From: Leptolyngbyaceae cyanobacterium
GTDB taxonomy: Bacteria > Cyanobacteriota > Cyanobacteriia > Phormidesmidales > Phormidesmidaceae
Reading direction: 5' to 3'
NCBI GenBank assembly: GCA_965263355.1
Contig: CBDHHL010000032.1
Coordinates: 2,688,001-2,752,000, forward strand
DNA: 64,000 bases
Positions 8,544 to 64,000 of this stretch are shown piece after piece (within the stretch, counting starts at the first letter, position 1; each line of letters opens with the position of its first letter). A program made the position numbers and the translations under genes. Under the pieces are notes generated by a model that saw only the letters and a program-made list of their open reading frames with translations, had not been told where the DNA came from and did no database searches.

Positions 8544-8594
8544 GTAACCTGCTGCATACGTCCATTCCTCTGTACATTTACCAGGTTTTCTTCC

Positions 8595-8927: not shown

Positions 8928-8998
8928 TCTGTTAGTCCATGGTTTAGCCAGGGCACGTTGAGCCAAAGTATTTGCTTAACTATTAAGCTTGATAGATC

Positions 8999-29500: not shown

Positions 29501-32500
29501 TTGCCAGCCTTTACGTAAACAATCAGTTAGTTGGCTCCAACACCATTGATGGAGACTTCTCTAATTGGAACGCTGGGTACCAGTTTGCCTTAGCTAATGA
29601 GCTAGATAGTACCCGACACTGGCTGGGCAGCTATGACCTGGTGGCCATTTACAACCAAGCTTTTGATGCTAGCGAAGTGGAACAGAACTATCTGGCAGGG
29701 GCATCGTTTGGTGATATCCCTACTAATGCTCTTCCTGTCGCAGTAAATGACAGTGGAACTGTTGAAGAAGACTCCCAGCTGACCCTCAATGTGTTGGCCA
29801 ATGACAGTGATGCCGATAATGATAACTTGACCCTGGTGTCAGTATTGCCCGGTAACAATGGCACAACGTCTATTGAAGGGGGGCAGATTGTCTACACACC
29901 AACGGCCAACTTTAGCGGCACTGACAGTTTTGACTATACGGTCTCCGATGGCCAAGGGGGCACTGACACAGCGACCGTAACCATTACGGTGAATAGTGTT
30001 AATGATGACCCTGTGGCTGTGGATGATACAGCGACCACAGACCAAGACTCTAGTCTGCTAGTGCCGGTGTTGTCTAATGACAGCGATGTTGAGGGTGATA
30101 CTCTAACGGTGTTGTCTGCCACTGCAGGAAGTGCTGGCAGCACCGCCATTGAGAACAACCAGATTCGCTATACTCCTGACGCTGGGTTTGTCGGTGACGA
30201 CTCGTTTAGCTACACGGTGGAAGATGGTAACGGCGGTAGTGCGACAGCCACCGTCAATATCACGGTGACTGAATCCACTTCGTCGCCTGGAAATACCGCC
30301 CCTGTGGCTGTCAATGACAGCAGTACGCTGCAGGAAGACTCCCAGCTAACACTCAATGTGTTGGCTAATGACAGTGATGCCGATGATGATAGCTTAAGCC
30401 TTGTGTCAGTATTGCCCGGTAACAATGGCACAACCTCTATTGAAGGTGATCAGGTCGTCTACACGCCAACAGCCAACTTTAGCGGCACTGACAGTTTTGA
30501 CTATACGGTCTCCGATGGCCAAGGGGGCACTGACACAGCGACCGTAACAATTACAGTGAATAATGTTAATGATGACCCTGTGGCTGTGGATGATACGGCG
30601 ACCACAGACCAAGACTCTAGTCTGTTGGTGCCGGTGGTAGCTAATGACACCGATGTTGAGGGTGATACGTTAACGATAGTGTCTGCCACTGCAGGTAGTG
30701 CTGGCAGCACCGCCATTGAGAACAACCAGATTCGCTATACCCCTGACGCTGGTTTTGTCGGTGACGACTCGTTTAGCTATACCGTGGAAGATGGTAACGG
30801 CGGTACGGCTACAGCAACTGTCAATGTCACAGTGACTGATACGACGACTACAACAGGACGTGTGAACGAGGGTCTCTTGAGTCTGTATACCTTTGATGAG
30901 GGGCAGGGGAGTACCGTCTTTGATTTGTCCGGTGTGGGTGATCCGTTAAATCTTGAAATCGAGAATCTCAATGGTATTAGCTGGGGGAACGGCATTTTAG
31001 ATGTCACAGCCCCTAACCTAATCGCATCAAATCAAGCGGCGACTAAGCTGATTGATGGCATTACTGCTACCCAAGAGCTGACCATTGAAGCCTGGATTAC
31101 CCCAGATAATCTCTCCCAGCGTGGCCCAGCTCGGATTGCAACGCTCTCGTCAAATATTGGTAGTCGCAATGTCACCCTAGGTCAGGATAGAGATGAGTAC
31201 CAGACCCGTTTACGCACGACAACCACTGGTAACAATGGTGTTAACAAGTTAGTGACCTCGAGTGGTGATGCCGCAGATACAGCGTTAAGCCATGTGGTCT
31301 ACTCTCGTGATGCCAGTGGCCTCGCTAACCTGTATGTGGATAATCAGCTGGTGGGCACGAATACGATCGATGGTAATTTCTCCAACTGGGATAGTCAGTA
31401 TGAGTTTGCGCTAGCCAATGAACTCGACAGCAGGTCCCTGGTTGGGAAGCTATGACTTGCTGGCTATTTACAATCAGGCCCTTGATGCCAGTGAGGTAAC
31501 TCAAAATTATCTAGCTGGAACCCAGGTCTGAGAATGAGCCCCCCACCAATACTGCCCCTGTGGCTGTCAATGACAGCGGCAGCTGCAGGAAGACTCTCAG
31601 TGACCCTCAATGTGTGCCAATGACAGCGTGTTGATGATAGCTTGACCCTTGTGTCAGTGGCCTGTGGCATCACGATGAAAGTGGTCAGATTATCTACACA
31701 CCACAGCTAACTTTAGCGGCCTGACAGTTTTGACTCTACGGTCTCCGATGGCCAAGGGGGCACTGACACAGCCACTGTGACCGGTGAATGATGTTTGATA
31801 ACCCCATTGCTGGAGATGATACGACCACCACAGACCACTCGAGTCTGTTGGTGCCAGTGTTGGCTAACGACACCGATATCGATGGCGATACCCTGACATA
31901 GTGTCTGCTACAGCAGAGTAGTGCTGGCAGCACCGCCATTGAGAACAACCAGATTCGCTATACCCCTGACGCTGGTTTTGTCGGTGACGACTCGTTTAGC
32001 TACACCGTGGAAGATGGTAACGGCGGTACGTGCGACAGCCACCGTCAATATTACGGTGACTGAATCCACTACGTCGCCTGGAAATCCGCCCCGTGGCTAG
32101 TCAATGAGCAGTACGCTGCAGGAAGACTCCCAGCTAATACTCAATGTGTTGATGACAGGTCAGGGGAATACCATGCTTTGATGTGCCCGGTGTAGGCAAT
32201 CCATTGAACCTGGCAATCGATAACTTAACGATGTTAGCTGGGGTGAAGGTATTTTAGATATACGGTCTCCCAGCGTGGCCCAGCAGGCGGCCACTAAACT
32301 AACTGCAACGGCTCTCGTCAAATATCACTCGCTACCTAGGTCAGGAAGAGCTAACCATTGACAGCCTGGATTACGCACAGATAATCTCACCCAAGTGGTA
32401 ACAATGGTGTTAACAAGTTAGCGACCTTGCGAGTGGTCGGATGCCCAGATACAGCGTTAAGCCATAGGGCAGGTTAGGGATGAGTACCAGGTGCGTTTAC

Positions 32501-34642
32501 GTACTCAGTGGTACAACGTAAGCGGGTACAATCGAGTGGTGATGCCGCAGTACAGCGTTAAGCCATGTGGTCTACTCTCGTGATGCCAGTGGTCTCGCTA
32601 ACCTGTATGTGGATAATCAGCTGGTGGGCACGAATACGATCGATGGTAATTTCTCCAACTGGGATAGTCAGTATGAGTTTGCGCTAGCCAATGAACTCGA
32701 CAGCAGTCGTCCCTGGTTGGGAAGCTATGACTTGCTGGCTATTTACAATCAGGCCCTTGATGCCAGTGAGGTAACTCAAAATTATCTAGCTGGAACCCAG
32801 ATAACTGAGAATGAGCCCCCCACCAATACTGCCCCTGTGGCTGTCAATGACAGCGGCACGCTGCAGGAAGACTCTCAGCTGACCCTCAATGTGTTGGCCA
32901 ATGACAGCGATGTCGATGATGATAGCTTGACCCTTGTGTCAGTGTTGCCTGGTAACAACGGCATCACGTCTATTGAAAGTGGTCAGATTATCTACACACC
33001 AACAGCTAACTTTAGCGGCACTGACAGTTTTGACTATACGGTCTCCGATGGCCAAGGGGGCACTGACACAGCCACTGTGACGATTACGGTGAATGATGTT
33101 AATGATAACCCCATTGCTGGAGATGATACGACCACCACAGACCAAGACTCGAGTCTGTTGGTGCCAGTGTTGGCTAACGACACCGATATCGATGGCGATA
33201 CCCTGACAGTGGTGTCTGCTACAGCGAGTAGTGCTGGCAACACCGCCATTGAGAACAACCAGATTCGCTATACCCCTGACGCTGGGTTTGTCGGTGACGA
33301 CTCGTTTAGCTACACGGTGGAAGATGGTAACGGCGGTAGTGCGACAGCCACCGTCAATATCACGGTGACTGAATCCACTTCGTCGCCTGGAAATACCGCC
33401 CCTGTGGCTGTCAATGACAGCAGTACGCTGCAGGAAGACTCCCAGCTAACACTCAATGTGTTGGCTAATGACAGTGATGCCGATGATGATAGCTTAAGCC
33501 TTGTGTCAGTATTGCCCGGTAACAATGGCACAACCTCTATTGAAGGTGATCAGGTCGTCTACACGCCAACAGCCAACTTTAGCGGCACTGACAGTTTTGA
33601 CTATACGGTCTCCGATGGCCAAGGGGGCACTGACACAGCGACCGTAACAATTACAGTGAATAATGTTAATGATGACCCTGTGGCTGTGGATGATACGGCG
33701 ACCACAGACCAAGACTCTAGTCTGTTGGTGCCGGTGGTAGCTAATGACACCGATGTTGAGGGTGATACGTTAACGATAGTGTCTGCCACTGCAGGTAGTG
33801 CTGGCAGCACCGCCATTGAGAACAACCAGATTCGCTATACCCCTGACGCTGGTTTTGTCGGTGACGACTCGTTTAGCTATACCGTGGAAGATGGTAACGG
33901 CGGTACGGCTACAGCAACTGTCAATGTTACAGTGACTGATACTACGAGTACTGGCCGTGTAAATGAGGGGCTGTTGAGCCTGTATACCTTTGATGAGGGG
34001 CAGGGGAATACCATCTTTGATGTATCCGGTGTAGGCAATCCATTAAATCTTGAAATTGATGACCTCACTGGCATTAACTGGGGTGAGGGTAATTTAGACA
34101 TTACGGCCCCTAACCTAATCGCATCAAATCAAGCGGCGACTAAGCTGATTGATGGCATTACCGCTACCCAAGAGCTGACCATTGAAGCCTGGATTACTCC
34201 AGATAATCTCTCCCAGCGTGGCCCAGCCCGGATTGCGACGCTCTCGTCAAATATTGGTAGTCGCAATGTCACCCTAGGTCAGAATAGAGATGAGTACCAG
34301 GCCCGTTTACGTACTACAACCACCGGTAACAATGGTGTCAACAAGCTAGTGAACTCGAGTGGTGATGCCGTAGATACAGCGTTAAGCCATGTGGTCTACT
34401 CTCGTGATGCCAGTGGTCTCGCTAACCTGTATGTGGATAATCAGCTGGTGGGCACGAATACGATCGATGGTAATTTCTCCAACTGGGATAGTCAGTATGA
34501 GTTTGCGCTAGCCAACGAACTCGATGGCAGTCGCCCCTGGTTGGGAAGCTATGACCTGCTGGCTATTTACAATCAGGCGTTTGATGCTAACGAAGTGGCC
34601 CAGAACTATCTGGCAGGCGCTGATGCAGCCTTTGTTGTTTAG
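26587..34642 (+). CDS. giant FG-GAP/CRTAC1-ASPIC(UnbV) + cadherin-like (PVAVDD) repeats + LamG surface protein; frame broken at ~31430-32570
   Basis: [16 protein letters not shown] repeats, [27 protein letters not shown]-UnbV, 'PVAVND..VLANDSD.D..YTP..F.GTDSF.YTV.DG.GG' repeats, and '[13 protein letters not shown]' LamG domains. ORFs 26515-31455 and 32567-34642 read as parts of one gene. Confidence 0.85.
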
Positions 34643-48962: not shown

Positions 48963-49202
48963 CTAACTAATCTTCACTTTTTTAGTCAAAATCGCCATCA
49001 CCTCATTGGGTCGCCCGGTGGGTAGTGGACGACTCCAGTCGTTGGGCTCAGTGTAGTTGAGCTTATGCAACAGCTTGATGGTGGTCTGCACAAAGGTCAA
49101 ACTGCCCAGCAGCAGATGTCGTCCCATTTCGTAGGAGGATTCTGGTAGCGGGTCAGGCTGACGGGTGAGCGCTGATGCGCCCTGGGTTGGGTCTTGAAAC
49201 AT
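48963..49202 (-). CDS. small cyanobacterial hypothetical protein
   Basis: RHLLLGS..VQTTIKLLHKLNYTEPNDWSRPLPT..EVMAIL, a pattern I recognise from small cyanobacterial ORFs. Confidence 0.65.
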   Translation of the reverse strand: MFQDPTQGASALTRQPDPLPESSYEMGRHLLLGSLTFVQTTIKLLHKLNYTEPNDWSRPLPTGRPNEVMAILTKKVKIS

Positions 49203-49664
49203 GGTTCTGGTTCTCCAGAGATACGACAAGGAAAGCCAGAACCCAACAGCTCAGCCCCCGCGATGTATGGCAAATCGCAGGGGCTGAGGCATAATAAGCC
49301 CATCCCAAGGATTGCTCTGGAATCCGCGGGTCAGCCATCGGTTAGGTGTTGCGAGCACCTGCCGATGGTGCCAAGTTATTAGGTTCTAGTAGAACAGCTG
49401 CACTTGCAGCATTGGGTTACTTTAGACCGGGGGTTAGGCTTTCGTCAAGCTAGCGTAATGGGCTGTATCACGCTGTTATCAAGGCACTGAGGAGATGCTT
49501 CTGGCCGGAAAAATGCTCATTTCACTGGTTTAACCGTCAAAAACGGTAGATATTGACCCCATCGAACAAGGATAGTCTTAGCGACCCCCTAAAACATCAC
49601 ACTCACGATAAGTCTTGGTAGATGGCTCAATAGTTTATTTGAACTATTAAAGCGAGGTTAAAGC

Positions 49665-49807
49665 TTTCTGGATAACTCCGACTCTGGGGGTATTATCCAG
49701 AAAGTTTCTGGGTTAATTGCTTATAAGGTGTTTATCCAGAAAGTTTCTGGATAACTCCGGCTGGAAGGTATTTATCCAGACTTAGTCTGGATAACTCATA
49801 GTTAGGC
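49665..49807 (+). other. attI-like integron recombination site with upstream palindromic repeats
   Basis: GGATAAC-TCATA-GTTAGGC (L box, 5-bp spacer, GTTRRRY R box), preceded by TTATCCAG-N7-CTGGATAA palindromes at ~40-bp period. Confidence 0.6.
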
Positions 49808-50530
49808 GCGCGACTCGAAGTCGTTCGGGGGAGTTGGAGAGACTCCCAAATGACTCTCCCCGCCAGTGTTCAGGCGGATGTCCGCCTCGGAATGTTCGAC
49901 CAGTAATGGGAGGGCAGCATCAGCAGACGAGGTTAAATGTCGCAGTATCTTCTGAGCCAACAAGAGGGTGCAGGCTAGGGCAAGATTGCTAAGGATAACG
50001 CAAGTGAATCCTTGATGAGGCTTCGTTAATGTGAGTTCTCGAAATGGCTGATACGAGAATTTTGGAGCATATGGGGGTTGGTAGCGTCTAAATACCAATC
50101 AAGAACACCCCGCTCTCGGAGTAAAGAGGAATCCTAAAGCAATCATATCTCCACCCCGTGCGGAACGAGGAAACCCCGATAGAGTCCTGAAAATACTTTA
50201 TTTTCCAGGTAAGCGGAGGGCAACCAAAGCTGAACTCTCTAGCGGGCACAGGATATCCCAAGAAGCGAAAGCTGCCAGCCGAAAAACCGGAATTCATCAG
50301 ATAGGGCATTTGCCAACCTGAAACTCGTGGGATAGGTGATGGACGATGAAACTTAACTGATTGGGAAAAGTTAGGTGCAAGCTTCGGCTTGTAAACGTAA
50401 CCATCAGGACAATCTGAAAAGGTTGTTAAGAATCGGAAAAACTGAATTTCAAGACATTGCTTGATATACAGTGAAAGTTGTACGTACGGTTCTGAACGGG
50501 ATATATTTAAAACCTGCTTCCTTACCCGAC
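49808..50530 (+). mobile_element. ORF-less group II intron, copy 1 (small deletions incl. domain V)
   Basis: 5' GCGCG, 3' CCTTACCCGAC; near-identical to copy 2 but lacks GCCG in DV and part of DVI. Confidence 0.85.
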
Positions 50531-51298
50531 GCGCGACTCGAAGTCGTTCGGGGGAGTTGGAGAGACTCCCAAATGACTCTCCCCGCCAGTGTTCAGGCGG
50601 ATGTCCGCCTCGGAATGTTCGACCAGTAATGGGAGGGCAGCATCAGCAGACGAGGTTAAATGTCGCAGTATCTTCTGAGCCAACAAGAGGGTGCAGGCTA
50701 GGGCAAGATTGCTAAGGATAACGCAAGTGAATCCTTGATGAGGCTTCGTTAATGTGAGTTCTCGAAATGGCTGATACGAGAATTTTGGAGCATATGGGGG
50801 TTGGTAGCGTCTAAATGCCAATCAAGAACATCCCGCTCTCGGAGTAAAGAGGAATCCTAAAGCAATCATATCTCCACCCCGTGCGGAACGAGGAAACCCC
50901 GATAGAGTCCTGAAAATACTTTATTTTCCAGGTAAGCGGAGGGCAACCAAAGCTGAACTCTCTAGCGGGCACAGGATATCCCAAGAAGCGAAAGCTGCCA
51001 GCCGAAAGGCAACCGGAATTCATAACGGGGCAGATAGGGCATTTGCCCAACCTGAAAGGGGGCTGACGTGGGATAGGTGATGGACTTGAATGAAGGTGAG
51101 ATGAAACTTAACTGATTGGGAAAAGTTAGGTGCAAGCTTCGGCTTGTAAACGTAACCATCAGGACAATCTGAAAAGGTTGTTAAGAATCGGAAAAACTGA
51201 ATTTCAAGACATTGCTTGAGCCGTATACAGTGAAAGTTGTACGTACGGTTCTGAGGGGAGGAAGCGGGATATATTTAAAACCTGCTTCCTTACCCGAC
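50531..51298 (+). mobile_element. ORF-less group II intron, copy 2 (intact ribozyme core)
   Basis: 5' GCGCG; DV GAGCCGTATACAGTGAAAGTTGTACGTACGGTTC; DVI GGGGAGGAAGCGGG...CCTGCTTCCTTACCCGAC; no RT ORF. Confidence 0.92.
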
Positions 51299-51323: not shown

Positions 51324-52190
51324 GTGAGAACCAATCATCCAACCCGACATCAGGTGAAAAGAATTGTACGAAAAGCAGCCCAGAAGATCCTAGGCTTTGA
51401 GCCAGCATTGCCGGCGTTAGAAGCCAAAGTAGCAACCAGCATCTCCGATAATCAACGATACCCCCAAGCCTGTCTTCGAGCTGCAAATGACTATCGACTC
51501 TTTAATTCATTTAGGCAGAGTCATGATTACACACAGATTCTTGAGCATGTCTCCCATGATCAAGGGGCTGCATATCTGGATGAGATAAAGAGATGGCCTG
51601 ACGTGTTTAGCGCACTTCCTGATATAGCCCATAACGATGATTACGGCGGGCCTGTTCTTCATTCTTATCCTGGAATCGCTCCGATATCTCCCAGCACACT
51701 TAGATATGCCAAAGTCTTGTGTGACTTATATAGCTTGTTTGGCTCTCTGGATAACTTTCATATTGCTGAGATTGGCGTTGGCTACGGAGGGCAATGCCGT
51801 GCCATAAATTCAACATCATCGCCAAGTAGTTACACACTTATTGACTTGCAGCCAGTTCTTCAGCTTTCACAGAGATACTTGGACTACTACATCTTGAATT
51901 CACAGCTAGTTTATTCAACCATGAACCAGCTGGCAACCCATGAATATGACTTACTGATTAGCAATTATGCCTTCACCGAGCTTCCAAGGGCAGTTCAGGA
52001 TGTTTATCTCTCTAGGGTCGTTCTGCCTTCGATTCGTGGGTATATTACATATAACCAGATATCTCCAGACTCGTTTATGTCCTATACATCAGATGAGCTG
52101 CTTGAGATGATTCCAGGCTCGGCCAGAGTCGACGAGGTTCCTCTCACTCATCCCATGAACTGTATAATTGTCTGGGGCCAGAATGGCTAA
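51324..52190 (+). CDS. putative sugar O-methyltransferase, cassette-like gene
   Basis: YTQILEHV, SPSTLRYAKV, IAEIGVGYGG, SNYAFTEL. The stop TAA lies inside the attC R'' box GGCTAAC. Confidence 0.82.
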   Translation: MRTNHPTRHQVKRIVRKAAQKILGFEPALPALEAKVATSISDNQRYPQACLRAANDYRLFNSFRQSHDYTQILEHVSHDQGAAYLDEIKRWPDVFSALPDIAHNDDYGGPVLHSYPGIAPISPSTLRYAKVLCDLYSLFGSLDNFHIAEIGVGYGGQCRAINSTSSPSSYTLIDLQPVLQLSQRYLDYYILNSQLVYSTMNQLATHEYDLLISNYAFTELPRAVQDVYLSRVVLPSIRGYITYNQISPDSFMSYTSDELLEMIPGSARVDEVPLTHPMNCIIVWGQNG

Positions 52191-52468
52191 CATAGGCCCT
52201 GAGGCGGACGAGGTCAATAGCAAATGCTAAAATTCTTTTTCTGCTTTAGCTTTAGCGCGGATTCAGACGTTCAAAATTGACCTAATAGTCAGGTGTTCAG
52301 GGAGACTGAACCTGCGCTATTAGATGGGGCTGCGTTGCTGAATGATCATTGATACGGGTTAGCTGTTCATAAGATATTTCTCCAAGTGACTGCATAGAGT
52401 GCTCGATCTTGTTTTGGTTGTTACTGTTTTTATTGCTTGTTTTCAAGTGCAATTTGTTCTTCTTGCAC

Positions 52469-53752
52469 TTATTGTTTAGGTTGTTGTTGAACGCCTAATA
52501 GCTTTACTAGTGGTGATTTTTTACGTCTCAGTGCAGCCAGATATTTCTCCTCGTCATAGGGTACACCATCTTGCCAACAACGCCAGAGAATTCTCCCCCA
52601 CTTATAGGCCAAGGCTCGAATCGCTTTTTGATGTGACTTACCCTTTAGTCGTTGTTGTTGATAAAACGCTTGTGACCAAACCGAGCGAGGCCTGGCATGA
52701 GCAACCCACTCGACAAAGGTTTGTCTTAGAAAGATGGGGCAAGACCAACGCCAATGAACCCATCGCTTTTTGCCACTCTCTTCTTTGACTGGCGCGATGC
52801 CAATGTAACTCAAAAAAGACTGAGCGCAATTAAAGCGAGTTCGGTCTTCACCAAAGGCCGCTAACAATCGTGGCGCTAAATGAGGCCCAGCCCCTGGCAA
52901 TGCCTTAAAAAGTTCTGCATCCGGCAGCGATTCAAATAACGAGGCAATTTGACGCTCAAACACAATCAATTGCGACAAGACTACTTTCAATAAAGCGACT
53001 AAGCCTTGCATTAACGCTTGGGCTGGAATGGTGATAGCGTCGTCTCGCGTCAAGGGTGGCCCAGCGTCTTGAATTTGCTGAGTTCGCCGTTGAATCGTGG
53101 TTTTGCGAATGATGTGATGGCTACGAAAGAAGTCTCTCAAGACATCAGCTGTAGCAGCTTGAGCCTCTTGTAAATTGGGAAACTGTTCAAGGAATTCACA
53201 AAACGCAATGGTGTCTTTATCTTCAAACCAGTCGAGCACTTGAGGAAAATAGGATTTGAGTGCGGCGGTGATCCGATTCGTCAGCCGGACCTTCTCACCC
53301 ACTAACATGCGACGGGACTCAACCCATTGTCTCAATGCACGATGCTTCGGACAACCTGATGTCCAGATATCAAGTTTTTCACCATGTTTTTGCATCAATT
53401 CGACGATCAGTTTGGCATCGATGGGATCCGATTTGGCCCGCGAGGGCTGAAACGCTTTGCGATAGTTCGCGACCGTTCGAGGATTAACGGGCACCAGCAC
53501 CAAATTCTCGTATTGACATAGGCCATAAAGGAGGGGGCCGCGTTTCTGCTCCAACCCAACCAGCAACTTGGACTCTCCATAGGTTTTTCGTAAGCGATTG
53601 ACCCAATCTGCAATGGATTGGGGCTTGGATTGAATCGTGCAATGCTCCCAGGTTTCGTTCTGGCAGTCATAGAGCGCAATATCATGTTTACGATCTGCCC
53701 AGTCAATCCCGATATAAGCCGCATATGCTGTTGGACTTTGATTGAGTTTCAT
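52469..53752 (-). CDS. IS110 family recombinase/transposase
   Basis: GIDWADRKHD, GLEQ, KSDPIDA (DEDD), LPGAGPHLA, GIAPVKEESGK. Confidence 0.95.
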   Translation of the reverse strand: MKLNQSPTAYAAYIGIDWADRKHDIALYDCQNETWEHCTIQSKPQSIADWVNRLRKTYGESKLLVGLEQKRGPLLYGLCQYENLVLVPVNPRTVANYRKAFQPSRAKSDPIDAKLIVELMQKHGEKLDIWTSGCPKHRALRQWVESRRMLVGEKVRLTNRITAALKSYFPQVLDWFEDKDTIAFCEFLEQFPNLQEAQAATADVLRDFFRSHHIIRKTTIQRRTQQIQDAGPPLTRDDAITIPAQALMQGLVALLKVVLSQLIVFERQIASLFESLPDAELFKALPGAGPHLAPRLLAAFGEDRTRFNCAQSFLSYIGIAPVKEESGKKRWVHWRWSCPIFLRQTFVEWVAHARPRSVWSQAFYQQQRLKGKSHQKAIRALAYKWGRILWRCWQDGVPYDEEKYLAALRRKKSPLVKLLGVQQQPKQ

Positions 53753-53804
53753 TGTGCTAAATTGAGGGTGTTTTTGTTTGACGGAGAGTCTGCCACCAGT
53801 CGCC

Positions 53805-54080
53805 TTGCGAAGTGATTATGGAAAGGGTTATTTCCCTGCTCCCTGAGGATTCGTTGGGCAGCGATTGGACTGGCTTGAAGGGCGATTCGATATGTTAGTA
53901 GTCATCTTCTGACTGGCGCTGCATAGTCGTCCCCCCAAGCTAGCAGATTCTCTCCTTTCTTGACTCTATGCTTTTTTCCAGATTTAGAACATCTAAAGGG
54001 AGGAGCGATACGATATGTTAGTAGACATCTATACTGTCGTCCAATGCATAGTCGTCTCCTCCCATTTTTCTATGCTCGTC
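53805..54080 (-). ncRNA. predicted IS110 bridge RNA with two target loops and one donor loop
   Basis: Hairpins 53998-54063 and 53873-53940 each carry CTAACAT (target). Hairpin 53808-53853 carries CCTCAGGG and CCATAAT (donor junction). Confidence 0.78.
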
Positions 54081-54260
54081 CCCCCATAATCCAGATGCAG
54101 AAGACGGGAGTATGGGCTGGCTTCACTGCCGAGATTCTGGCCCGCTTCTGATCTGGAGCGTTAGGCTGCATCCCATACAGAATCCAGTTCCCTACTGACT
54201 CCTCACTTCTGACTTCTCGCATCGAGAAACCGTCTCGCTTTATATTAATACCCTTGAAGC

Positions 54261-57200
54261 TTATTCCTCAGGGCAAGCTTCACGAATTGCCGCACGTACA
54301 GCATTCGCAAGTAGCTGAACTTGAGGAGATTTCATTATCCTATAGTGATTACCTGGAATATGAACAATACCAAACTCTCCTGTAAGCACTGTGTCCCAGC
54401 CCCGATCATCGGTTTCCTCCTCTGCAGAGCAGAGTATCACTCGACCACCATAGGGTTGCACCTGATATCGTGCTAATGCCGTCTGATTAGCTTTGAAGAT
54501 GCGGAATAGATAGGCCATTTGCGTAGGCGTCATTTCCGGTGGTAGTAAGTTCATCCCCTGGGCAACGGCAAAGAGGTGTTCCAGCTGAGCATTAGGTGCG
54601 AGTTTTGCCAGTTTCAATCGATCTAACGACAGCTCACTATCAAACAAACCATTTAAATCAGTGATTAAAGACTGTAAATCTGCCGTGCCAATTTCCTCTG
54701 ATGTCGCCGATTTTGATGCCTCTATAGGGCTGGCTATTACCTGTGGCGTATAGCTATCAATCAGTACAACAAGCGCTACAGCTTCTCCGATAGATTGAAG
54801 CTGTTGAGCCATTTCTATGGCAATAACACCGCCCATTGACCATCCTGCTAAGTAATAAGGGCCATGGGGTTGAACGCTTTTTAAGGCCTTAATATAAGTC
54901 ATGGCCATCGTTTTAATTGAGTCTAAAGGCGTAACGTTATGATATGGTTCTGGTGATTGAAGACCGTACAGCGGTTGGTCTCGACCCAAATGATGGGCTA
55001 ATTCGGCGTAGCAGAAAACATTTCCACCCACTGGATGAATACAAAAGAGTAAGGGCAAAGTTCCATGGGGCTGGATCGGAACGAGGGGAGAGTGGTCTAC
55101 AATCGCATTTTGGCTGTTCAGTAGTCGAGCTTGGGCTTCAATGGTGGGATCAGTAAAGAGCACTGGCAATGGTAAATTAACTCCCAACTCTTGTTCTACT
55201 TGAGCCATTAGTCGCACCGCTAACAGGGAATGTCCCCCTAGCTCAAAGAAATCATCGTGTACTCCGACACTATCAAGGTTGAGGACTGCCGACCAAATTT
55301 GGGATAGTTGAAATTCTAAAGTGGTACGGGGTGGGGTAAAACTTACAGGAAAAGAGAGATCGACTTTAGGCCGGGGAAGAGTGCGACGATCAACTTTACC
55401 ATTGGGCGTCAAAGGTATTGCCTCCAAACGGATAAATGCACTGGGCACCATATAAAGGGGTAACTTAGTTTTAACGAATTCGCGCAACTGACCAATTGTC
55501 GATTCTCTCTTAGTGACAACATAGGCAATCAGGCGTTTATCTTCTGGGATATCTTCTCGAACAGTAACAACTGTTGAACTGACGTCTGGGTGTGTAGCTA
55601 AAACTGTTTCTATTTCTCCAAGCTCTATACGAAAACCCCGGATTTTAACTTGATTGTCAATTCGGCCCAGAAACTCAATGTTCCCATCTTGAAGATAACG
55701 TGCTTTATCTCCAGTATCATAAAGAATAGCATCTGGGTGAACACTAAAGGGATTTTGAACAAACTTCTGGGCAGTTTTTATCGGATCGTCATACCCCACA
55801 GCCAAACATTCTCCTCCAATATATAAAAAGCCAGGCACCCCTATCGGGCAGGGGGTCAGGCAAGAATCTAAGATATAATACTGTGCATTTTGGATGGGTC
55901 TGCCATAGGGAATGCTGGTTAAATTCTGATTGATAGATTCGATCCGATAATAATTCGACCAAATAGTTGCTTCGGTTGCTCCACCCAGACTGACAAGAAG
56001 AATGCTGGGAAATACTTTCTTCACCTGCTCAGGCAAGGCTACTGGAATCCAGTCACCACTCAAGAAGCCTAACCGGAGGGAACTGTTTGCTATGGATTTA
56101 GATGGCAAGAACGAAATCAATTGTTGAAGGGTTGCTGGGGTAGAATCCCAAAAGGTAATTGACTCCTCACAGAGAATATCAGCCACCTTCCGAGGATCTT
56201 GTAATTCTAAATCTGAAGCTACTCGAATTGACCCACCAGCCGCTAGCAAGCCAAAGATATCGTAAACAGATAAGTCAAAACACAAAGAGGTAACAAACAG
56301 TAGGCGATCGTCAACACTCACATTAAAAGTCTGGTTGACCCAATCAATTAAGTTGACAGCAGATCTATGACGTACGATGACGCCTTTGGGTACACCAGTA
56401 GACCCCGACGTATAGATAACATAAGCCGTATTATTCGGCATTACTGATGTTTCGGGATTTCGAGTGGACATTTGTGATAAATGCCAGTTTGTTGCCCAGT
56501 GTTTCTGTAGTACAGTCAAAGCAACTTGCTGTCTATCATTGCTTTCAGTGTTATGTTTTTTAATGATCACATCGTATCGATAGCGAAGTTCATTTTCAAA
56601 TCCCTGCTCTCGCTTAAGAACCGAAATCTCAGCAATAGGCTCTAATTGAACAGCTAAATCCCAGAAAAATTTCTCATCTACATATAGCTCACTACCCAGA
56701 TTAGTTTTCGCCTGGATAGGGTGTTCACCATCCTGATTAGACCTAAAGGCTATCAATGATTGTTCAAACTCGTCTTTGCGGCGAGCGTCCATGATATCTG
56801 ATAGCAAGATCGCTCCTCCTGGAGCTAAGCGTCTTACAGCAAGATCAAGAACGTGCTGTAAATAAAAAGCTCCTGGGAAAAACTGAACCGTACTCGCGAA
56901 GATAATAAGGTCAAAGGGGCCATCTTCAATGGAACCAATCTCATCCGCAAAAGCCGTCACGAGCTTAATAAAATTCCAATTATTCTCCCGAAGAATCTCA
57001 GCGTTACGTGCTTGAGTGATTTCTGAAGGATCAACACCAACATAGAGATCAACCTCAGGAGCAATTGCGAACATAATTTCTCCTGAACCACAGCCAATCT
57101 CTAGCACTCGTTTCCCGCTTCCAAAATATGGTTTCGCTAATCCAACAACGTGACATTTATACTCATCAACTTCGGACTCGGAAAAAGGCTGACTGGTATA

Positions 57201-60200
57201 GCTGCTAATAAATCCACCTGCCGTGACGCGATCGCTAGCCTGCTGGGCTACCCAATCCCATAACGATCGCACAGCCTTACGATCAATTTTTTCAGGATGG
57301 GGGGTGGGATCATCTATATCCAGGCAGATGACATGGGTTAGTTGTGAGTATTTCCATAGCAACTCTTGTGCAGTTCGCAGGTATTTTTGTTGGGTGATAA
57401 GACAGCTTACTGCTTGGGATGTAATAATCTTTTCTACTCGCGCAATTGGCCATTGAGGATCAAAAGGAATGTAAGCTCCACCGGCTTTTATTGCACCCAT
57501 CACGGCAGTTGGAATATTCGCAGAACGGTTCAAATAGATACCAATCTTCACTTCTGGGCCAACTCCGAGTGTTTGTAAGTAGTGTGCGAGTTGATTGGCG
57601 CGAACGTTTAGCTCCTGATAAGTCAGTTGTCTCTGATTAAACAGAATTGCCACTGCATCTGGACGCTGTTTCACTTGGGCTTCAAATAACTGATGAATGC
57701 ATTTATCCTTAGGGTAAGGGGCTTCAGTTTGATTCCATTCAACCAACAATTGGTGCCGTTCTATAGCCGTGAGCAAGGGTAGTTCTGTCACTGATTGTTG
57801 AGGGTTAGCGACAATCGCCCTCAATAGGGTCTCAAAATGCCCCACCGCTCGCTGAATCGTTGCTGTATCAAACAGGTCTTGATTATATTCCCAATAACCA
57901 ATTAGCCTATTATCCCGTTCCTCCAAGGAGAGAAACAGGTCAAACTTGGCGCGACCACTTTCCATTTGCAGCCACTCAAATCTAATTCCTGGCAGATTTA
58001 AGGGTTCCATGGGTGCATTTTGCAGGGCGAACATGACCTGAAAAAGAGGCGTATGACTGAGACTGCGTTCCGGTTGTAGTGCTTCTATTAACTGTTCAAA
58101 GGGCAAGTCTTGGTGGGCATGGGCATCTAACGCGGTTTGCCGGACTTGGGCCAAGAGTTGAGGAAAGGTCAGATTGTCGTCGAAGCGCGATCGTAACACC
58201 AACGTATTCACAAAGAAGCCAATTAATCCTTCAATTTCACTACGATTGCGGTTGGCAATGGGGGTGCCCACCAAAATATCGGTTTGACCGCTGTAGCGGT
58301 AGAGTAGGCTACTAAAAGCCGCAAACAACGTCATAAAAAGGGTTACCCCTGATTGTTGACTCAGATGTTTAAGCTGTTCCGTAAGGGTATGATCCAGTTG
58401 AAAAAAGATGCGATCGCCTTGATTAGACTGCACCGTCGGTCGAGGATAATCCGTAGGCAAGTCCAATAATGGGGGCGCATCGGCTAACTGTTGCCGCCAA
58501 TACTCCAATTGTGGCGCAAGAGATTGAGCGGTGGCAGGTTGTCGCTGCCAAGCGGCAAAGTCGGCATATTGAATGGCCAGTTCAGGTAAGGGTGAGGAGT
58601 CCCCTTCGATGAATGCTCCGTAGAGCACCTCCAATTCATGGACCAATACTCCCGTAGACCAACCATCGGTAATAATATGATGCATAGTGAGAAGCAACAT
58701 ATAGTCATCCTTCGCCAATTGCATCAACATGACCCGTAACAAGGTATCGTGAGCCAGATCAAAGGGTTGTTGTACCGCATCTTGACCCAGCTGTTGGACC
58801 TCAGCCATTTGTTGTTTTGGCTCAACATGCTGTAAATCTACTATCGGCAGTGGTAAATCTCTATGTGGCGATATTACCCGGAGCGGTTTCCCCTCAACAG
58901 ATTTGAAATTTGTTCGTAAGCTATCGTGTCGTCGGACAATTTCTAGTAGAGCTTGATGGAGTGCCTCCACATGCAGCGTCCCTGACAAACGTAAGCCCTC
59001 CTGCTCATTGTAGGCGACACTCTGGTCTTGTAATTGATCTAAAAACCAGAGACGTTGCTCAGCGAAGGATAGGGGTAAGTCTCCTTGACGGGACATCTGT
59101 TGAATCAGTGTTCGCTCTGAGGGCGTAGGTTTGGATTCGGTGTCCAGAATATCTTGGCTCAGTTGGGCGATGGTAGGAGATTCAAATAACCGATGCAGCG
59201 ACAGTTCCCGTTGGAAAACATCCCGCACTCGTGAAATTAGCTGGGTGGCTTGAATTGAATCTCCGCCCAGCATAAAAAAATTATCCAAAACCCCAATTTC
59301 GTTCAGCCCCAACACGTCGGCCCAAATATTAGCTAATAGCTCCTCCATAGGGGTCCGGGGATTCACCAGCTTGACATCTAGAACAGGACGGGAGCGATCG
59401 GGGGCTGGCAAATGCTGACGATCGACCTTACCGCTGGGGGTAAGGGGCAATTGATCGAGGACCACAAATGCCGAGGGAACCATGTAATTGGGCAGGGTTT
59501 CCGTCAGAAACTGACGCACCTGAGGAATCAGCTGATTTGTTTTCTGGCCACTGTATGGTTGGTTCGCATAGGCGTGCCAAGGTTTGGCCTTATTAGGAAT
59601 CTCACCGGGGGGCTGATCAACGGCTCCATGAGCCCTATCACCCAGGATAACGTTTGTGCCCTGCCGTACAAAGATGACATCGTAGTAGCCCTCATTGCCT
59701 TTACTATCCCAAGTGAGATGAACTTGGTACGGAATTTGATCTTGCAACGTCCACCAGACTTCCGGTTCAATGGCCTTGCTCTTGGCATCGTGTAAGGTAA
59801 TCTCTTGGCGAAGTTCCTTTACCGTTGGGGGACAATGATCCACATTTGACAATAGCGACAGGGCGATAACGTCAGACCCAATTCGGGCATTCGGCACATG
59901 GTTGACCACTAATAGGTCAGGGGTCATGTCCACTAGTTTTTGGCGGATGGCATGGATTGCCTCCTCGCCATCTTCTTCACACCAGTCCAGAAAAACAGGT
60001 GCGGTAGGTGTGGCAAATTCTTTATCGATGTGCAACACCACATCGTAACGAAATCGGGTCAGCTCATTTTGATGATATCCCCGCTTTAGGTGAATGTCTA
60101 CATGGCTAATGCGGGGCAGATAGGCCTTTAATGCTGTGAAAAACTCAGGATCAACCATCAATCGTTGTTCACGGGTGCGACGATCGCGAATACGTCTGCG

Positions 60201-62243
60201 TAGGTCTGCTACCGGGAGAGAATCTGGCGATTGATAGAGCTGCACTGAGGTATGGAACATTTCCAACAACGGTAAACTCAAAATATCTCCCAGGAAAATT
60301 TGTCCGCCTGGTTGAATTCTATCCACTGCGGTTTCAATAACTGACACCAAATAATCAATACTGGGGAAGAATTGAATCACTGAATTAGAGATAGCTGTAT
60401 CAAAGGATGTCGTCACAATCTCTCCCAGGGTATGGGCAGCAGCCTGTTGCAGAACTACAGATGCTGCAACTGAAGGTTCAAGGATTTGACCGGCCTTAAG
60501 TTGTCGCTCTAGATAGCGAATGGCCTCACCGGATAAATCTGTAGCATAGTAGTGTTGACACTTAGGTGCCATGCGAAAAAGCAGTAGCCCTGTGCCACAG
60601 CCAATTTCTAAAAGGCGCTGGGGTTGCAATGATAAGATTCGCTCTACCGTATAGTCCACCCATTCCTGTACATGATTTGGGTCCAGATCTGTGCCTGTGT
60701 AGGAGTCGTTCCAGCCGCCAATGTGAAAATCAGCATCCTGCTCCTGATCAGGTTGAATATAGGCTTCATCCCAAATTTGCCGCCATTGTTCCGTTTGTTC
60801 AACGACATCCTGAGTTGCCTTGACCTTAACCTCAGAGCCGGAAACAACATAGGCTACTAAGCGCTTTTGACCGCTGGGTTCTGCTCGCGCTGTTACAACA
60901 GCTTGGGCAATATCAGGATGTTGTAACAGGGTTGCTTCGATTTCTTCCAACTCAATGCGATAGCCCCGTATCTTAACTTGGTGATCAATACGGCCTAAAC
61001 ATTCAATGGTGCCATCGGTATGGTACCGGGCTAAATCTCCAGTTTTATAAAGGCGATCACCCTCCTCTAAATCAGCGTCCTGGGCAAAGGGACTGGGAAT
61101 AAATTTTTTAGCGGTCAACTCCGGACGATTGAGATATCCTCGAGCGACCCCTATGCCCCCAATGTGCAATTCTCCAACTTCACCAACAGCGACAGGGGTT
61201 TGATTCTCATCTAGAATGTAAGCCTGGGTATTACTAATCGTCCGCCCAATAGGGATGGTCGCATCCGCCGATTGCACCCGATGTATCGTGGCCCATACCG
61301 TAATTTCAGTAGGACCATATAAATTCCACAACGATCCCCCCTTAGGTAATAACTGGGCCGCTAGCTCTGGTGATAAGCGGTCCCCAGTAGAAATGATTTT
61401 CAAGTCACGACACCCTGACCATTTAGCATTCATGAGCATTTGCCAGGTCGCAGGGGTAGCTGACATCACTGTCACACGGTGTTGATGAATCAACTGAATT
61501 AACTGATCAGGATCTTGGGTTGCTGTTTGACTGGCCACGACCACCTTACCGCCAACGGTCAATGGACCAAGCAATTCTGGAACTGAAACGTCGAAAGAAA
61601 TGGTTGTAACTGCAATAGACGTATCCGTGTCCCTTAACCCTGGGCAAATGGCAATCGCCAATAGTAGATTCACCACGGAACGATGAGCGATCTGTACCCC
61701 CTTAGGTTTTCCGGTCGAACCAGAGGTGTAGATAATGTAGGCTAAGTTACTAGGTACAGCAGTAGAAATGGGATTAATGGGAGAATGTTGGCCGATGTGT
61801 TGTTTAGTGCTACCAAGGCAGATTAGTGTAATGTTCTTGGCAAGGTGTATCTGGACATTAGTGGCTGGCGATTGAGTTACAATAATTTTTAGACCCGCAT
61901 CTTGCACCATAAAAGCAAGGCGATCACTAGGATAGGCTGGATCTAAAGGAACATAAGTGCCACCAGCTTTCATGATGCCGAGCATCGCAACGACCATTTC
62001 TAAGGAGCGTTCAATGCAAAGTCCCACCAGTACCTCTGGACCTACCCCCAAGGATTGCAGATAATGGGCAAGTTGATTGGCCTGTTGATTTAATTCCTGA
62101 TAGGTAAGTTGCTGCTCCTCAAAAACCAGTGCCACAGCATCCGGAGCCTGCATCACTTGGGCTTCAAACATTTCATGAATGCATCGATTCCAAGATGTGC
62201 TGGTATCAGTATTGCGCATTTCTGAGGCGTTAGCTTCTTGCAT
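54261..62243 (-). CDS. two-module NRPS: A(MT)-T-C-A(MT)-T-TE
   Basis: YTSGSTGKPKG and YTSGSTGVPKG (A3); LEIGCGTG and LEIGCGSG (MT); GGDS and GGHS (T); HHIITDGWS (C); GWSMGG (TE). Confidence 0.95.
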   Translation of the reverse strand: MQEANASEMRNTDTSTSWNRCIHEMFEAQVMQAPDAVALVFEEQQLTYQELNQQANQLAHYLQSLGVGPEVLVGLCIERSLEMVVAMLGIMKAGGTYVPLDPAYPSDRLAFMVQDAGLKIIVTQSPATNVQIHLAKNITLICLGSTKQHIGQHSPINPISTAVPSNLAYIIYTSGSTGKPKGVQIAHRSVVNLLLAIAICPGLRDTDTSIAVTTISFDVSVPELLGPLTVGGKVVVASQTATQDPDQLIQLIHQHRVTVMSATPATWQMLMNAKWSGCRDLKIISTGDRLSPELAAQLLPKGGSLWNLYGPTEITVWATIHRVQSADATIPIGRTISNTQAYILDENQTPVAVGEVGELHIGGIGVARGYLNRPELTAKKFIPSPFAQDADLEEGDRLYKTGDLARYHTDGTIECLGRIDHQVKIRGYRIELEEIEATLLQHPDIAQAVVTARAEPSGQKRLVAYVVSGSEVKVKATQDVVEQTEQWRQIWDEAYIQPDQEQDADFHIGGWNDSYTGTDLDPNHVQEWVDYTVERILSLQPQRLLEIGCGTGLLLFRMAPKCQHYYATDLSGEAIRYLERQLKAGQILEPSVAASVVLQQAAAHTLGEIVTTSFDTAISNSVIQFFPSIDYLVSVIETAVDRIQPGGQIFLGDILSLPLLEMFHTSVQLYQSPDSLPVADLRRRIRDRRTREQRLMVDPEFFTALKAYLPRISHVDIHLKRGYHQNELTRFRYDVVLHIDKEFATPTAPVFLDWCEEDGEEAIHAIRQKLVDMTPDLLVVNHVPNARIGSDVIALSLLSNVDHCPPTVKELRQEITLHDAKSKAIEPEVWWTLQDQIPYQVHLTWDSKGNEGYYDVIFVRQGTNVILGDRAHGAVDQPPGEIPNKAKPWHAYANQPYSGQKTNQLIPQVRQFLTETLPNYMVPSAFVVLDQLPLTPSGKVDRQHLPAPDRSRPVLDVKLVNPRTPMEELLANIWADVLGLNEIGVLDNFFMLGGDSIQATQLISRVRDVFQRELSLHRLFESPTIAQLSQDILDTESKPTPSERTLIQQMSRQGDLPLSFAEQRLWFLDQLQDQSVAYNEQEGLRLSGTLHVEALHQALLEIVRRHDSLRTNFKSVEGKPLRVISPHRDLPLPIVDLQHVEPKQQMAEVQQLGQDAVQQPFDLAHDTLLRVMLMQLAKDDYMLLLTMHHIITDGWSTGVLVHELEVLYGAFIEGDSSPLPELAIQYADFAAWQRQPATAQSLAPQLEYWRQQLADAPPLLDLPTDYPRPTVQSNQGDRIFFQLDHTLTEQLKHLSQQSGVTLFMTLFAAFSSLLYRYSGQTDILVGTPIANRNRSEIEGLIGFFVNTLVLRSRFDDNLTFPQLLAQVRQTALDAHAHQDLPFEQLIEALQPERSLSHTPLFQVMFALQNAPMEPLNLPGIRFEWLQMESGRAKFDLFLSLEERDNRLIGYWEYNQDLFDTATIQRAVGHFETLLRAIVANPQQSVTELPLLTAIERHQLLVEWNQTEAPYPKDKCIHQLFEAQVKQRPDAVAILFNQRQLTYQELNVRANQLAHYLQTLGVGPEVKIGIYLNRSANIPTAVMGAIKAGGAYIPFDPQWPIARVEKIITSQAVSCLITQQKYLRTAQELLWKYSQLTHVICLDIDDPTPHPEKIDRKAVRSLWDWVAQQASDRVTAGGFISSYTSQPFSESEVDEYKCHVVGLAKPYFGSGKRVLEIGCGSGEIMFAIAPEVDLYVGVDPSEITQARNAEILRENNWNFIKLVTAFADEIGSIEDGPFDLIIFASTVQFFPGAFYLQHVLDLAVRRLAPGGAILLSDIMDARRKDEFEQSLIAFRSNQDGEHPIQAKTNLGSELYVDEKFFWDLAVQLEPIAEISVLKREQGFENELRYRYDVIIKKHNTESNDRQQVALTVLQKHWATNWHLSQMSTRNPETSVMPNNTAYVIYTSGSTGVPKGVIVRHRSAVNLIDWVNQTFNVSVDDRLLFVTSLCFDLSVYDIFGLLAAGGSIRVASDLELQDPRKVADILCEESITFWDSTPATLQQLISFLPSKSIANSSLRLGFLSGDWIPVALPEQVKKVFPSILLVSLGGATEATIWSNYYRIESINQNLTSIPYGRPIQNAQYYILDSCLTPCPIGVPGFLYIGGECLAVGYDDPIKTAQKFVQNPFSVHPDAILYDTGDKARYLQDGNIEFLGRIDNQVKIRGFRIELGEIETVLATHPDVSSTVVTVREDIPEDKRLIAYVVTKRESTIGQLREFVKTKLPLYMVPSAFIRLEAIPLTPNGKVDRRTLPRPKVDLSFPVSFTPPRTTLEFQLSQIWSAVLNLDSVGVHDDFFELGGHSLLAVRLMAQVEQELGVNLPLPVLFTDPTIEAQARLLNSQNAIVDHSPLVPIQPHGTLPLLFCIHPVGGNVFCYAELAHHLGRDQPLYGLQSPEPYHNVTPLDSIKTMAMTYIKALKSVQPHGPYYLAGWSMGGVIAIEMAQQLQSIGEAVALVVLIDSYTPQVIASPIEASKSATSEEIGTADLQSLITDLNGLFDSELSLDRLKLAKLAPNAQLEHLFAVAQGMNLLPPEMTPTQMAYLFRIFKANQTALARYQVQPYGGRVILCSAEEETDDRGWDTVLTGEFGIVHIPGNHYRIMKSPQVQLLANAVRAAIREACPEE

Positions 62244-62378
62244 ATCCTGTACATCTAGTTACTGCAGTATCCTATACTAGGGGATTAGGAGTATGAAGAG
62301 TGTTTTTCATCACTGCATAAAAAAAGGATACAAGACGTCGCCAAAGCACCGTCAAAGACAGGCGGAGATGCCTAACAT

Positions 62379-64000
62379 AGTCCCTGAGGCGGACGAGGTC
62401 AATAGCAAAGGCTAAACTTCTTTTTCTAGTTAAGCTTGAGTCTGTATTCAGACATGCAGGATTAACCTGATACTCAGTTGTTCAGGGAGGAGATTGTTCT
62501 CTCTCAGAGAGGGCTGCTTTGCTGTATGACCGTGAATACGGGTTAGCTGTTCATCGGATATTGCTCCAAGTGATTACATCGAGTGCTCGATCTTGTTGTT
62601 GTAGTTGTAGTAGTTGTTGTTATCTGCCTTTAAAGTATTACTTGTTATTTTTGTGATTGTTGTTTAGGTTGTTGTTGAACGCCCAATAACTTTGCTAGTG
62701 GGGACTTTTTGCGTCTCAGTACAGCTATGTATTTTTCTTCATCATAAGGGACACCATCTTGCCAACAGCGCCAGAGAATTCTTCCCCACTTATAGGCCAA
62801 GGCACGAATCGCTTTAGGATGACTTTTACCTGATTGCTTCTGCTGTAGATAAAAGGCTTGGGACCAAGTCGAATGTCGACGCGCTTGATCGACCCATTCA
62901 ACAAAGGTTTGTCTGAGGAAAATTGGACATGACCAACGCCAATGAACCCAGCACTTTTTGCCGCTTTCCTCCTTGACAGGGGCAATACCGATATAGCTCA
63001 TAAAGGCCTGAGCCGACGTAAAGCGCGTGCGGTCTTCGCCAAAGGCGACTAACAGTCGTGGCGCTAGATGCGGTCCGGCTCCCGGTAAGGCCTGAAATAA
63101 CTCGGCATCTGGCAATGACTCAAACAGGTTAGCAATCTGTTGGTTAAATTCAGTTAATTGTTGTAAAACAACCTTAAGCAGAGTGATTAGACTTAAAGTC
63201 AGTGTTTTAGCCGGTATCACAATGGCGTCATCCTCAGTCAGCGGTGGGCCTGCGTCTTTGATTTGCTGAATCCTACGCTGAATCGTCGTCCGTCGAACAA
63301 CATGATGGCGATGGAAAAACTGAGTGATTGTTTCAGGGGTCGCTGCTTGGGCCGCTTTGACATCGTCGAACTGCTCAATAAACTCACAAAAGACCTGCGT
63401 ATCTTTATCTCTAAACCAATCAAGAACTTGAGGAAAATAGGATTTGAGTGATGCGGTGATACGGTTAGTCAAACGCACCTTTTCGCCCACTAACATCCGA
63501 CGCGATTCTACCCATTGTCTGAGGGCACGATGTTCAGGGCACCCTGCCACCCAAGCCTTTAGTTTATTGCCATGCTTACGCATTAACTCCACCAGAATAC
63601 GGGCATCTACGGGGTCGGATTTGGCTCGTGATGGCTGAAACGCTTTTCGATAGTTGGCCACCGTTCTGGGATTAATGGGAAACAGCACTAAATTGTCATA
63701 CTGACACAGCGCATAGAGTAGAGGCCCTCGCTGTTGTTCAAGAGCAACCGCAATTTTGCCAGGACCATACCGTTCTCGGAGTTGTGTGACCCAATCCAGA
63801 ATAGCTTGAGGATGGTTTTGAATAATACTATTTTTCCAGGTGTCTGTTGCACAGTCATATACCGCAATGTCATTTTTTCGGTCAGCCCAGTCAATGCCCA
63901 CATAGGCCACATAGTCAATCGACTCGATGGCCTTAGGCATAGGTGTTTCTGAAGCTGAGTCTGTAGTTATGGTTGGGGCTATTGTCATTGTGTTAGATTA
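62379..64000 (-). mobile_element. second IS110-family element (left end outside window) inserted after GCCTAAC-AT
   Basis: End AGTCCCTGAGGCGGACGAGGTCAATAGC is homologous to 52194 onward. Confidence 0.85.
62645..63988 (-). CDS. IS110 family recombinase/transposase (diverged paralogue of 52469-53752)
   Basis: GIDWADRKND, ALEQ, KSDPVDA, GIAPVKEESGK. Confidence 0.95.
   Translation of the reverse strand: MTIAPTITTDSASETPMPKAIESIDYVAYVGIDWADRKNDIAVYDCATDTWKNSIIQNHPQAILDWVTQLRERYGPGKIAVALEQQRGPLLYALCQYDNLVLFPINPRTVANYRKAFQPSRAKSDPVDARILVELMRKHGNKLKAWVAGCPEHRALRQWVESRRMLVGEKVRLTNRITASLKSYFPQVLDWFRDKDTQVFCEFIEQFDDVKAAQAATPETITQFFHRHHVVRRTTIQRRIQQIKDAGPPLTEDDAIVIPAKTLTLSLITLLKVVLQQLTEFNQQIANLFESLPDAELFQALPGAGPHLAPRLLVAFGEDRTRFTSAQAFMSYIGIAPVKEESGKKCWVHWRWSCPIFLRQTFVEWVDQARRHSTWSQAFYLQQKQSGKSHPKAIRALAYKWGRILWRCWQDGVPYDEEKYIAVLRRKKSPLAKLLGVQQQPKQQSQK

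Follow-up and report, generated by a model that had tools for sequence, protein, structure and literature searches.

Organization of the locus

The DNA analyzed here is a 64,000-nucleotide stretch from a Leptolyngbyaceae cyanobacterium (hereafter, the window). Near its right end, an NRPS gene is located on the minus strand (54,261–62,243) between two integron-type core sites, GTTAGGC (54,160–54,166) and GCCTAAC (62,370–62,376), from which it is separated by gaps of 94 bp and 126 bp, respectively. The interval is flanked by two IS110 transposase genes, both of which scored above the NCBIfam cut-off (NF033542). A first-pass annotation had described these features, and re-reading of the sequence reproduced them.

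Upstream of the interval is an attI-like array head (49,667–49,807, plus strand) composed of periodic palindromes and ending in a 7-bp box, a 5-bp spacer and a GTT core. The same head precedes cassettes in L132 and L094 and is a cassette hotspot in relatives. It did not align with the DNA beside the true intI genes (L110 and L112); therefore, the label “attI-like” rests on its position. Tandem, ORF-less copies of a group II intron lie just 3′ of the core (49,808–51,298, plus strand; Rfam RF00029 at 51,216–51,298; 723-bp-spaced repeat). They are followed by the first cassette gene (51,324–52,190, plus strand), which encodes a putative sugar O-methyltransferase (TIGR04371, 69.7 bits, cut-off 44) and whose stop codon lies within the R″ core of the next site, attC1. 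A Pfam scan of 30 ORFs of the window, including all of those of at least 250 aa, detected no integrase. In sequencing run X3, a contig (depth, 29.6) joined position 49,805 to 51,298 and was intron-free. The core at this joint was complementary at 7/7 positions to the R″ of the O-methyltransferase cassette, whereas the core 5′ of the intron in the window has a single different base.

A two-module NRPS with interrupted A domains

The gene encodes an intact two-module NRPS of 2,660 aa, with the architecture A(N-MT)-T-C-A(S-MT)-T-TE as determined from Pfam domains and motifs. The phosphopantetheine serines and the HHxxxDG and GxSxG motifs are all intact. Module 1 contains type I N-methyltransferase motifs between a8 and a9, and module 2 contains type IV S-methyltransferase motifs between a2 and a3; the types were assigned against the table in the available text of PMC8341866. 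On the basis of the insertion points and the type I and type IV motifs, the two domains probably represent families 1 and 3 of interrupted A domains. As described in the accessible part of that source, family 1 (TioS, N-methylation) and family 3 (TioN, S-methylation) correspond in motifs and positions to modules 1 and 2, respectively, whereas here a single stand-alone enzyme, with two modules and a thioesterase, combines both types. The pocket residues of module 2, identified by visual inspection of the conserved motifs, resemble the cysteine code; module 1 is glycine-clade-like, in an atypical form. The predicted product is likely an N-methyl-X/S-methyl-cysteine dipeptide. The enzyme, with its N- and S-methylating modules, represents an uncharacterized one-gene pathway.

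No orthologue was found among the approximately 8,000 candidates scored per protein search, the first list of which consisted mostly of long NRPSs. When two candidates per genome were scored in 172 genomes of the family, partial matches of 67–71% were obtained in four and none was an orthologue. In the JGI metagenomes, 37 pattern matches were returned and none was confirmed as a relative. The DNA of the S-methyltransferase had no match in 401 genomes of the class, in a search run without a positive control; the best homologue of this region among the matches listed was 67% identical. The nearest NRPSs of the same architecture, found in three genomes, shared 57% and 50% identity and were without the second methyltransferase. 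Their downstream genes differed, and none of the three was bounded by attC sites. The GC content of the NRPS gene (0.465; GC3, 0.42) was similar to that of several neighboring genes. A GTA-N8-TAC palindrome is present just 5′ of the NRPS start, within 62,244–62,283; it resembles an NtcA site.

IS110 elements at the two integron cores

The R″ of attC1 (52,185–52,191, plus strand) is separated from the remainder of the site by IS110 #1, an element of 1,897 bp (52,192–54,088, minus strand; transposase, 52,469–53,752) inserted at the junction between R″ and the spacer. The remainder (54,089–54,166, plus strand) consists of a 5-bp spacer, L″ (54,094–54,101), the stem, L′ (54,147–54,153), a 6-bp spacer and R′ (54,160–54,166). 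In silico removal of IS110 #1 produced an 85-bp sequence that folds as an attC hairpin, with the geometry R″, 5-bp spacer, 8-bp L″, 7-bp L′, 6-bp spacer and R′. A covariance model (R1) constructed from 20 intact attC sites of relatives, with attC1 excluded from the training set, detected this sequence with 29.5 bits (E = 9e-6). The site is also found without the insertion. A 9,233-bp contig of run X1 joined 52,191 to 54,089 with a two-letter overlap (AT), skipped the 1,897 bp and then covered the whole NRPS gene; an identical IS-free attC1 junction, with the NRPS in place, was present in run X2. Both runs derive from one sample, perhaps the source of the assembly, and thus count as one line of evidence. 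These data indicate that attC1 is a genuine integron attC site. The asymmetry of attC1 (5 bp and 8 bp on the left, 7 bp and 6 bp on the right), together with the TAA of the upstream ORF within R″, sets the polarity of the array to the plus strand, thereby confirming that the NRPS gene is inverted relative to the array. With model R1 run with its filters off, no further attC site was found between the two cores (best internal match, 9.1 bits, E = 2).

IS110 #2 occupies the other border (62,377–64,000 of the window, minus strand; transposase, 62,645–63,988). It begins directly 3′ of GCCTAAC, as IS110 #1 does directly 3′ of its R″. In X1 and X3, the element was represented by a 1,934-bp unitig starting at 62,387, and its end is therefore expected at approximately 64,320, beyond the window. 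Within the window, attC2 is represented by its R″, and we infer from the relatives of the IS and from the toxin-antitoxin cassettes described below that the site is complete past IS110 #2. In 28 cyanobacterial loci with related IS110 elements, all 19 right ends found abutted a core (GTT in 17 and GTC in two), and 19 of the 23 evaluable left ends were followed by the rest of an attC site (12/16 when the seven seeds of the profile itself were left out).

The two elements shared 72–78% DNA identity, are co-oriented and intact, and have common end motifs; the closest relatives of both transposases were found in Leptolyngbyaceae-type cyanobacteria. The DEDD and Transposase_20 domains, the fixed insertion point in attC and the intact empty site are those of the IS110 group. 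The non-coding end upstream of the transposase is the longer one (336 bp, versus 277 bp downstream), which is the arrangement of the IS110 group and differs from that of the IS1111-attC group, in which the long non-coding region lies downstream and the inverted repeats are sub-terminal. As far as the accessible texts describe them, the attC-targeting IS1111 elements ISKpn4 and ISPst6 (cited in PMC11187229) and the IS621-type bridge recombinases (PMC11208160) share with our elements a fixed position in attC, a 2-bp core and an intact empty site, whereas the longer upstream end (336 versus 277 bp) and the cyanobacterial clade distinguish the present elements from ISKpn4 and ISPst6. A copy of IS110 #1 joined at 54,089 to a different attC left arm was observed in runs X3 and X5, and this arm was the same in both. 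A sigma-70-like pair (62,402–62,374, minus strand), made up of the IS110 #2 terminus and the R″ junction, faces the NRPS start 130 bp away; one such site was found where 1.2 were expected, which is no more than chance. The −35-like hexamer of this pair recurs in the right ends of related IS110 elements.

Cassette remnants and a repeat in the gaps

The first-pass annotation had stated that nothing other than the NRPS gene lies between the two cores. This does not hold, because the 126-bp gap contains the relic of a toxin-antitoxin cassette and the 94-bp gap contains half of a palindromic repeat. The last 54 bases of the right gap and core (62,323–62,376, plus strand) correspond to the last 17 codons and the stop codon of a HicB-like antitoxin gene, ending in the R″ of attC2 (62,370–62,376). 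The 55 bases ending in GCCTAAC were 79–87% identical to sequences in six of the 172 family genomes, and in all six the matching tail formed the 3′ terminus of a HicB-like antitoxin gene (117 aa) located behind a PIN toxin gene (PIN_3 and HicB domains by Pfam, on L104). The antitoxin TAA lay within R″ in each of the six genomes and a full attC site then followed; the core was GCCTAAC in four. Next to this tail is the relic of a leader (62,284–62,325, plus strand), an intergenic sequence that precedes the PIN/HicB operon in the cassettes that we refer to as OGFr-TA cassettes. In the alignment with the L153 leader, 35 of 45 columns matched, with a score of 47 against a maximum of 43 in 2,000 shuffles. 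A similar leader precedes the PIN/HicB operon in three genomes, and a search for it in 401 genomes of the class yielded no new member. Three A residues are shared where the leader joins the tail, 772 bp are absent at this junction by comparison with L132, and no matching GTT core belonging to the relic was found between 62,244 and 62,284. The homology of both parts indicates that R″ and attC2 were brought in by a toxin-antitoxin cassette now lacking its interior and its own start. A gene-less promoter cassette, considered earlier as an explanation of the 126-bp gap, was replaced by this relic. Across genomes, the PIN/HicB operon with its attC sits behind different upstream genes (L104–L109 and L132–L156), and the similarity begins at a palindromic operator. 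The operon with its attC may be a reusable cassette tail.

The left gap begins with a 17-bp stub resembling a cassette start (54,161–54,177, plus strand). It carries GC at positions 9–10 after the core, a feature present in 41% of 114 cassette starts and in 11% of 3,899 background cores; its best match to any sampled start was only 13/18. OGFr-TA cassettes begin with sequences that the stub does not resemble, and insertion of the NRPS into a single cassette of this type was therefore not supported. The rest of the gap, up to the NRPS stop, is half of a dispersed MITE/REP-like palindromic repeat (54,178–54,264, no strand assigned), which is cut 18 bp from R′. The repeat had matches with E ≤ 0.05 in 37 of the 172 family genomes, many of them weak and the best at 80–93% identity, and a fuller copy is present in the window at 24,919–25,045.

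The two cores had been described as perfectly complementary, and they are (7/7). As evidence for a single cassette, however, this match is weak. Neighboring attC pairs less than 1.5 kb apart were complementary at 7/7 positions in 14 of 31 cases, against 216 of 3,080 mismatched pairings. GCCTAAC was also the commonest R″ core, accounting for 25 of 106 sampled, and a 7/7 match thus favors a single cassette over chance by a factor of no more than about two (likelihood ratio for GCCTAAC, approximately 2). Of the three bases beyond the 7-bp cores, one matches here, and at least two matched in 11 of 16 perfect short cassettes. The gene and the attC were not originally one unit, R″ being the end of the HicB-like gene relic.

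Junctions in sequencing runs

Two further runs contained the left border of the interval: X3, a second sample from the same study as X1 and X2, and X4, a macroalgal metagenome from another study. Contig depths were not taken as copy numbers. In X3, the left border of the NRPS at 54,159 had two predecessors, attC1 (depth, 11.6) and another attC arm (9.9), which do not add up to the depth of the body (13.6). The alternative arm belonged to a class that comprised 14 of 114 arms overall; the two elements most closely related to IS110 #2 and two of the six toxin-antitoxin cassettes occupy arms of this class. The alternative arm could belong to an excision circle, as its attC2, or simply to another cassette. 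In X4, one contig (depth, 2.5) matched 54,159–54,380 at 95.5% identity (10 differences) and broke off at 54,159. The DNA upstream of this point was neither the array head of the window nor a usual attC arm; its 5-bp-type spacing occurred in two of 114 arms. The upstream motif was found in 67 of 172 genomes when two mismatches were allowed, and the 15 loci retrieved included neither an attC site nor a homologue. Both runs show that crossover has taken place at the left core. They do not show movement of the NRPS, because exchange of the upstream cassette gives identical junctions. A search for the gene with the same two boundaries at other loci, as the first-pass annotation had proposed, returned no second copy from genomes or metagenomes: X3 and X4 contained the left border by itself, and no second context turned up for the right one. 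A 30-base pattern taken from the right border likewise had no exact match in the genome or metagenome collections.

attC landscape in relatives

In five genomes of the family, 30–50 attC sites were present per genome in each, and intI was detected above the cut-off in three of five relatives. Among 56 co-oriented neighboring attC pairs, 16 were 3–12 kb apart and enclosed mosaic intervals, and four of these 16 (3.5–5.2 kb) had 7/7 cores; 14 of these loci had been selected because their sites were far apart, and some of the lengths are overestimates owing to missed sites or IS insertions. Individual examples include a 4.8-kb three-gene unit encoding a MalT-like regulator, a DUF4386 protein and a dehydrogenase, with 7/7 cores (L170:1395–6220), a 3.5-kb two-gene unit with 7/7 cores (L002:6115–9571), and an attC interval of approximately 8 kb containing a tubulin-like operon and an IS (L022:1900–10110).

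Origin of the interval

Considering these data as a whole, we favor, with a probability of roughly one half (approximately 0.52), a chimeric interval in which a chromosomal-type NRPS gene landed backwards in cassette DNA through a rearrangement that did not involve the integrase. Ownership of R″ by the toxin-antitoxin relic argues for such a chimera rather than for a cassette built around the NRPS. We also count in its favor the NRPS beside an IS-free attC1, the IS110 ends at attC positions, the toxin-antitoxin tail and leader, the absence of attC boundaries from all three NRPSs of the same architecture and the wide intervals in relatives. In the proposed course of events, the NRPS gene, together with its 3′ repeat, would have entered cassette DNA in inverted orientation by a rearrangement accompanied by deletions. 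The gene would thereby have come to lie between a cassette-start stub and the remains of a deleted toxin-antitoxin cassette, flanked by two attC sites. The IS110 elements would have arrived later at both sites, presumably guided to attC. IS110 #2 would now block attC2 and hold the NRPS in place, and IntI acting in trans could excise approximately 8.3 kb once IS110 #2 leaves. Several points weigh against the chimera: the order of these events is inferred, the other DNA at the left crossover in X3 and X4 fits a mobile unit, the junction between R′ and the NRPS must have some age, given its 95.5% conservation in X4, and the 17-bp stub matches no sampled start well.

The first-pass annotation had suggested an exceptionally large gene cassette. 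With attC1 shown and attC2 inferred, the 8.2-kb interval formally is a cassette, but its R″ comes from the toxin-antitoxin cassette and not from the NRPS. It is possible, though on balance unlikely, that the chimera functions as a giant cassette (approximately 8.3 kb), which IntI has already carried as a single unit from one array or secondary site to another. The break of the X4 contig at 54,159 with different DNA upstream would agree with this, as would the second predecessor in X3, which is expected of an excision-circle junction, the 3.5–5.2-kb intervals with 7/7 cores in relatives (4/16), the intI genes in three of five relatives and the imprecise excision known for genome-inserted cassettes (available text of 10.1101/2022.09.11.507474). 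However, exchange of the upstream cassette yields the same left junctions with the NRPS unmoved, the X3 junction depth (9.9, versus 11.6) is high for a non-replicating circle, and X4 contributes a single contig at a depth of 2.5. The confinement of the right border to one context and the occupation of attC2 by IS110 #2 in both X1 and X3 also speak against movement. In addition, according to the accessible portion of PMC5371416, in which lengths of up to approximately 3 kb were tested, long cassettes excise worse with weakly folding sites. In its most far-reaching form, which we consider doubtful, IntI would shuffle the complete two-module synthetase, enclosed by remains of older cassettes as an 8.3-kb mobile cassette, among the arrays of marine cyanobacteria, and RNA-guided IS110 elements in attC would switch this mobility off.

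An improbable alternative is that the NRPS is resident island DNA, to which two unrelated cassette remnants came independently, so that the bracket is incidental. The first-pass annotation had named this option as well, and it was partly right, since R″ does belong to another cassette. The weak core match with its next bases at 1/3, the GC and GC3 values (0.465 and 0.42) like those of several neighbors and the scattered attC sites common in the family (30–50 per genome in 5/5) are all compatible with it. On the other side, no NRPS orthologue was found in the 172 family genomes (two candidates scored per genome), the DNA at the end of each flank is of cassette type and truncated, with no GTT core of the relic's own in 62,244–62,284, and in relatives the array head upstream serves as a hotspot for cassettes. 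An origin of the NRPS as cargo of a composite transposon formed by the two IS110 elements, also raised by the first-pass annotation, is very improbable and was rejected because the NRPS exists without IS110 #1 (X1 and X2), the elements are only 72–78% identical where near-identical copies would be expected, and each occupies the attC position used by all relatives, despite their co-orientation, intactness and common end motifs and the capacity of bridge recombinases to excise DNA between matching sites (accessible text of PMC11208160).

Relation to known integron cassettes

In the available text of Cury et al. (2016; PMC4889954), the largest cassettes cited are approximately 2 kb and attC sites are clustered within a limit of 4 kb; the accessible part of PMC10963911 gives macroalgal cassette ORFs of up to 2,931 bp, based on amplicons. 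As far as PMC4889954 and Loot et al. (10.1101/2022.09.11.507474) are accessible, the present locus resembles integron cassettes, CALIN and SALIN in its canonical attC geometry, its co-oriented sites and the absence of intI from the ORFs of the window, and its cyanobacterial host group was already known to carry integrons. In contrast to integron cassettes, the interval spans 8.2 kb, the gene is inverted and R″ derives from the relic of another cassette. CALIN are defined in that text by at least two co-oriented attC sites less than 4 kb apart, without intI; the distance of 8.2 kb between attC1 and attC2 places the locus outside this definition, and it would be CALIN-like under a wider limit. 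Fused gene cassettes, in the available account (PMC8876359), are similar in that one downstream attC serves DNA of several origins after deletions; in those described, two small cassette genes have become linked once an attC was lost, whereas here a large chromosomal-type gene and half a repeat are enclosed. No natural NRPS-bearing cassette was found in the literature searched, the coverage of which left out most subscription papers.

The origin of new cassettes is regarded as an open question in the accessible parts of PMC5371416 and PMC8618304. Read as a chimera, the locus would illustrate one readable route, in which a large chromosomal-type gene comes to lie between a cassette start and an attC borrowed from a decayed toxin-antitoxin cassette. 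If mobile, the interval would be about four times the size of the largest cassettes cited in the available text of Cury et al., and integrons would then carry entire biosynthetic genes, in cassettes that would escape detection by IntegronFinder at its default 4-kb clustering limit.

Other features of the window

Three features lie outside the array. The region 6,500–8,930 contains direct and inverted repeats (199–215-bp copies and 18–40-bp palindromes) and is without a long ORF. A large cadherin/laminin-G adhesin is split at 31,455–32,567 into ORFs of 1,646 aa and 691 aa, with repeated blocks across the gap, and the split is possibly a frameshift or an assembly slip. An 88-aa ORF (48,963–49,229, minus strand) that had no Pfam or NCBIfam match precedes the attI-like head, and the DNA of this region is repeated at many places in G002.
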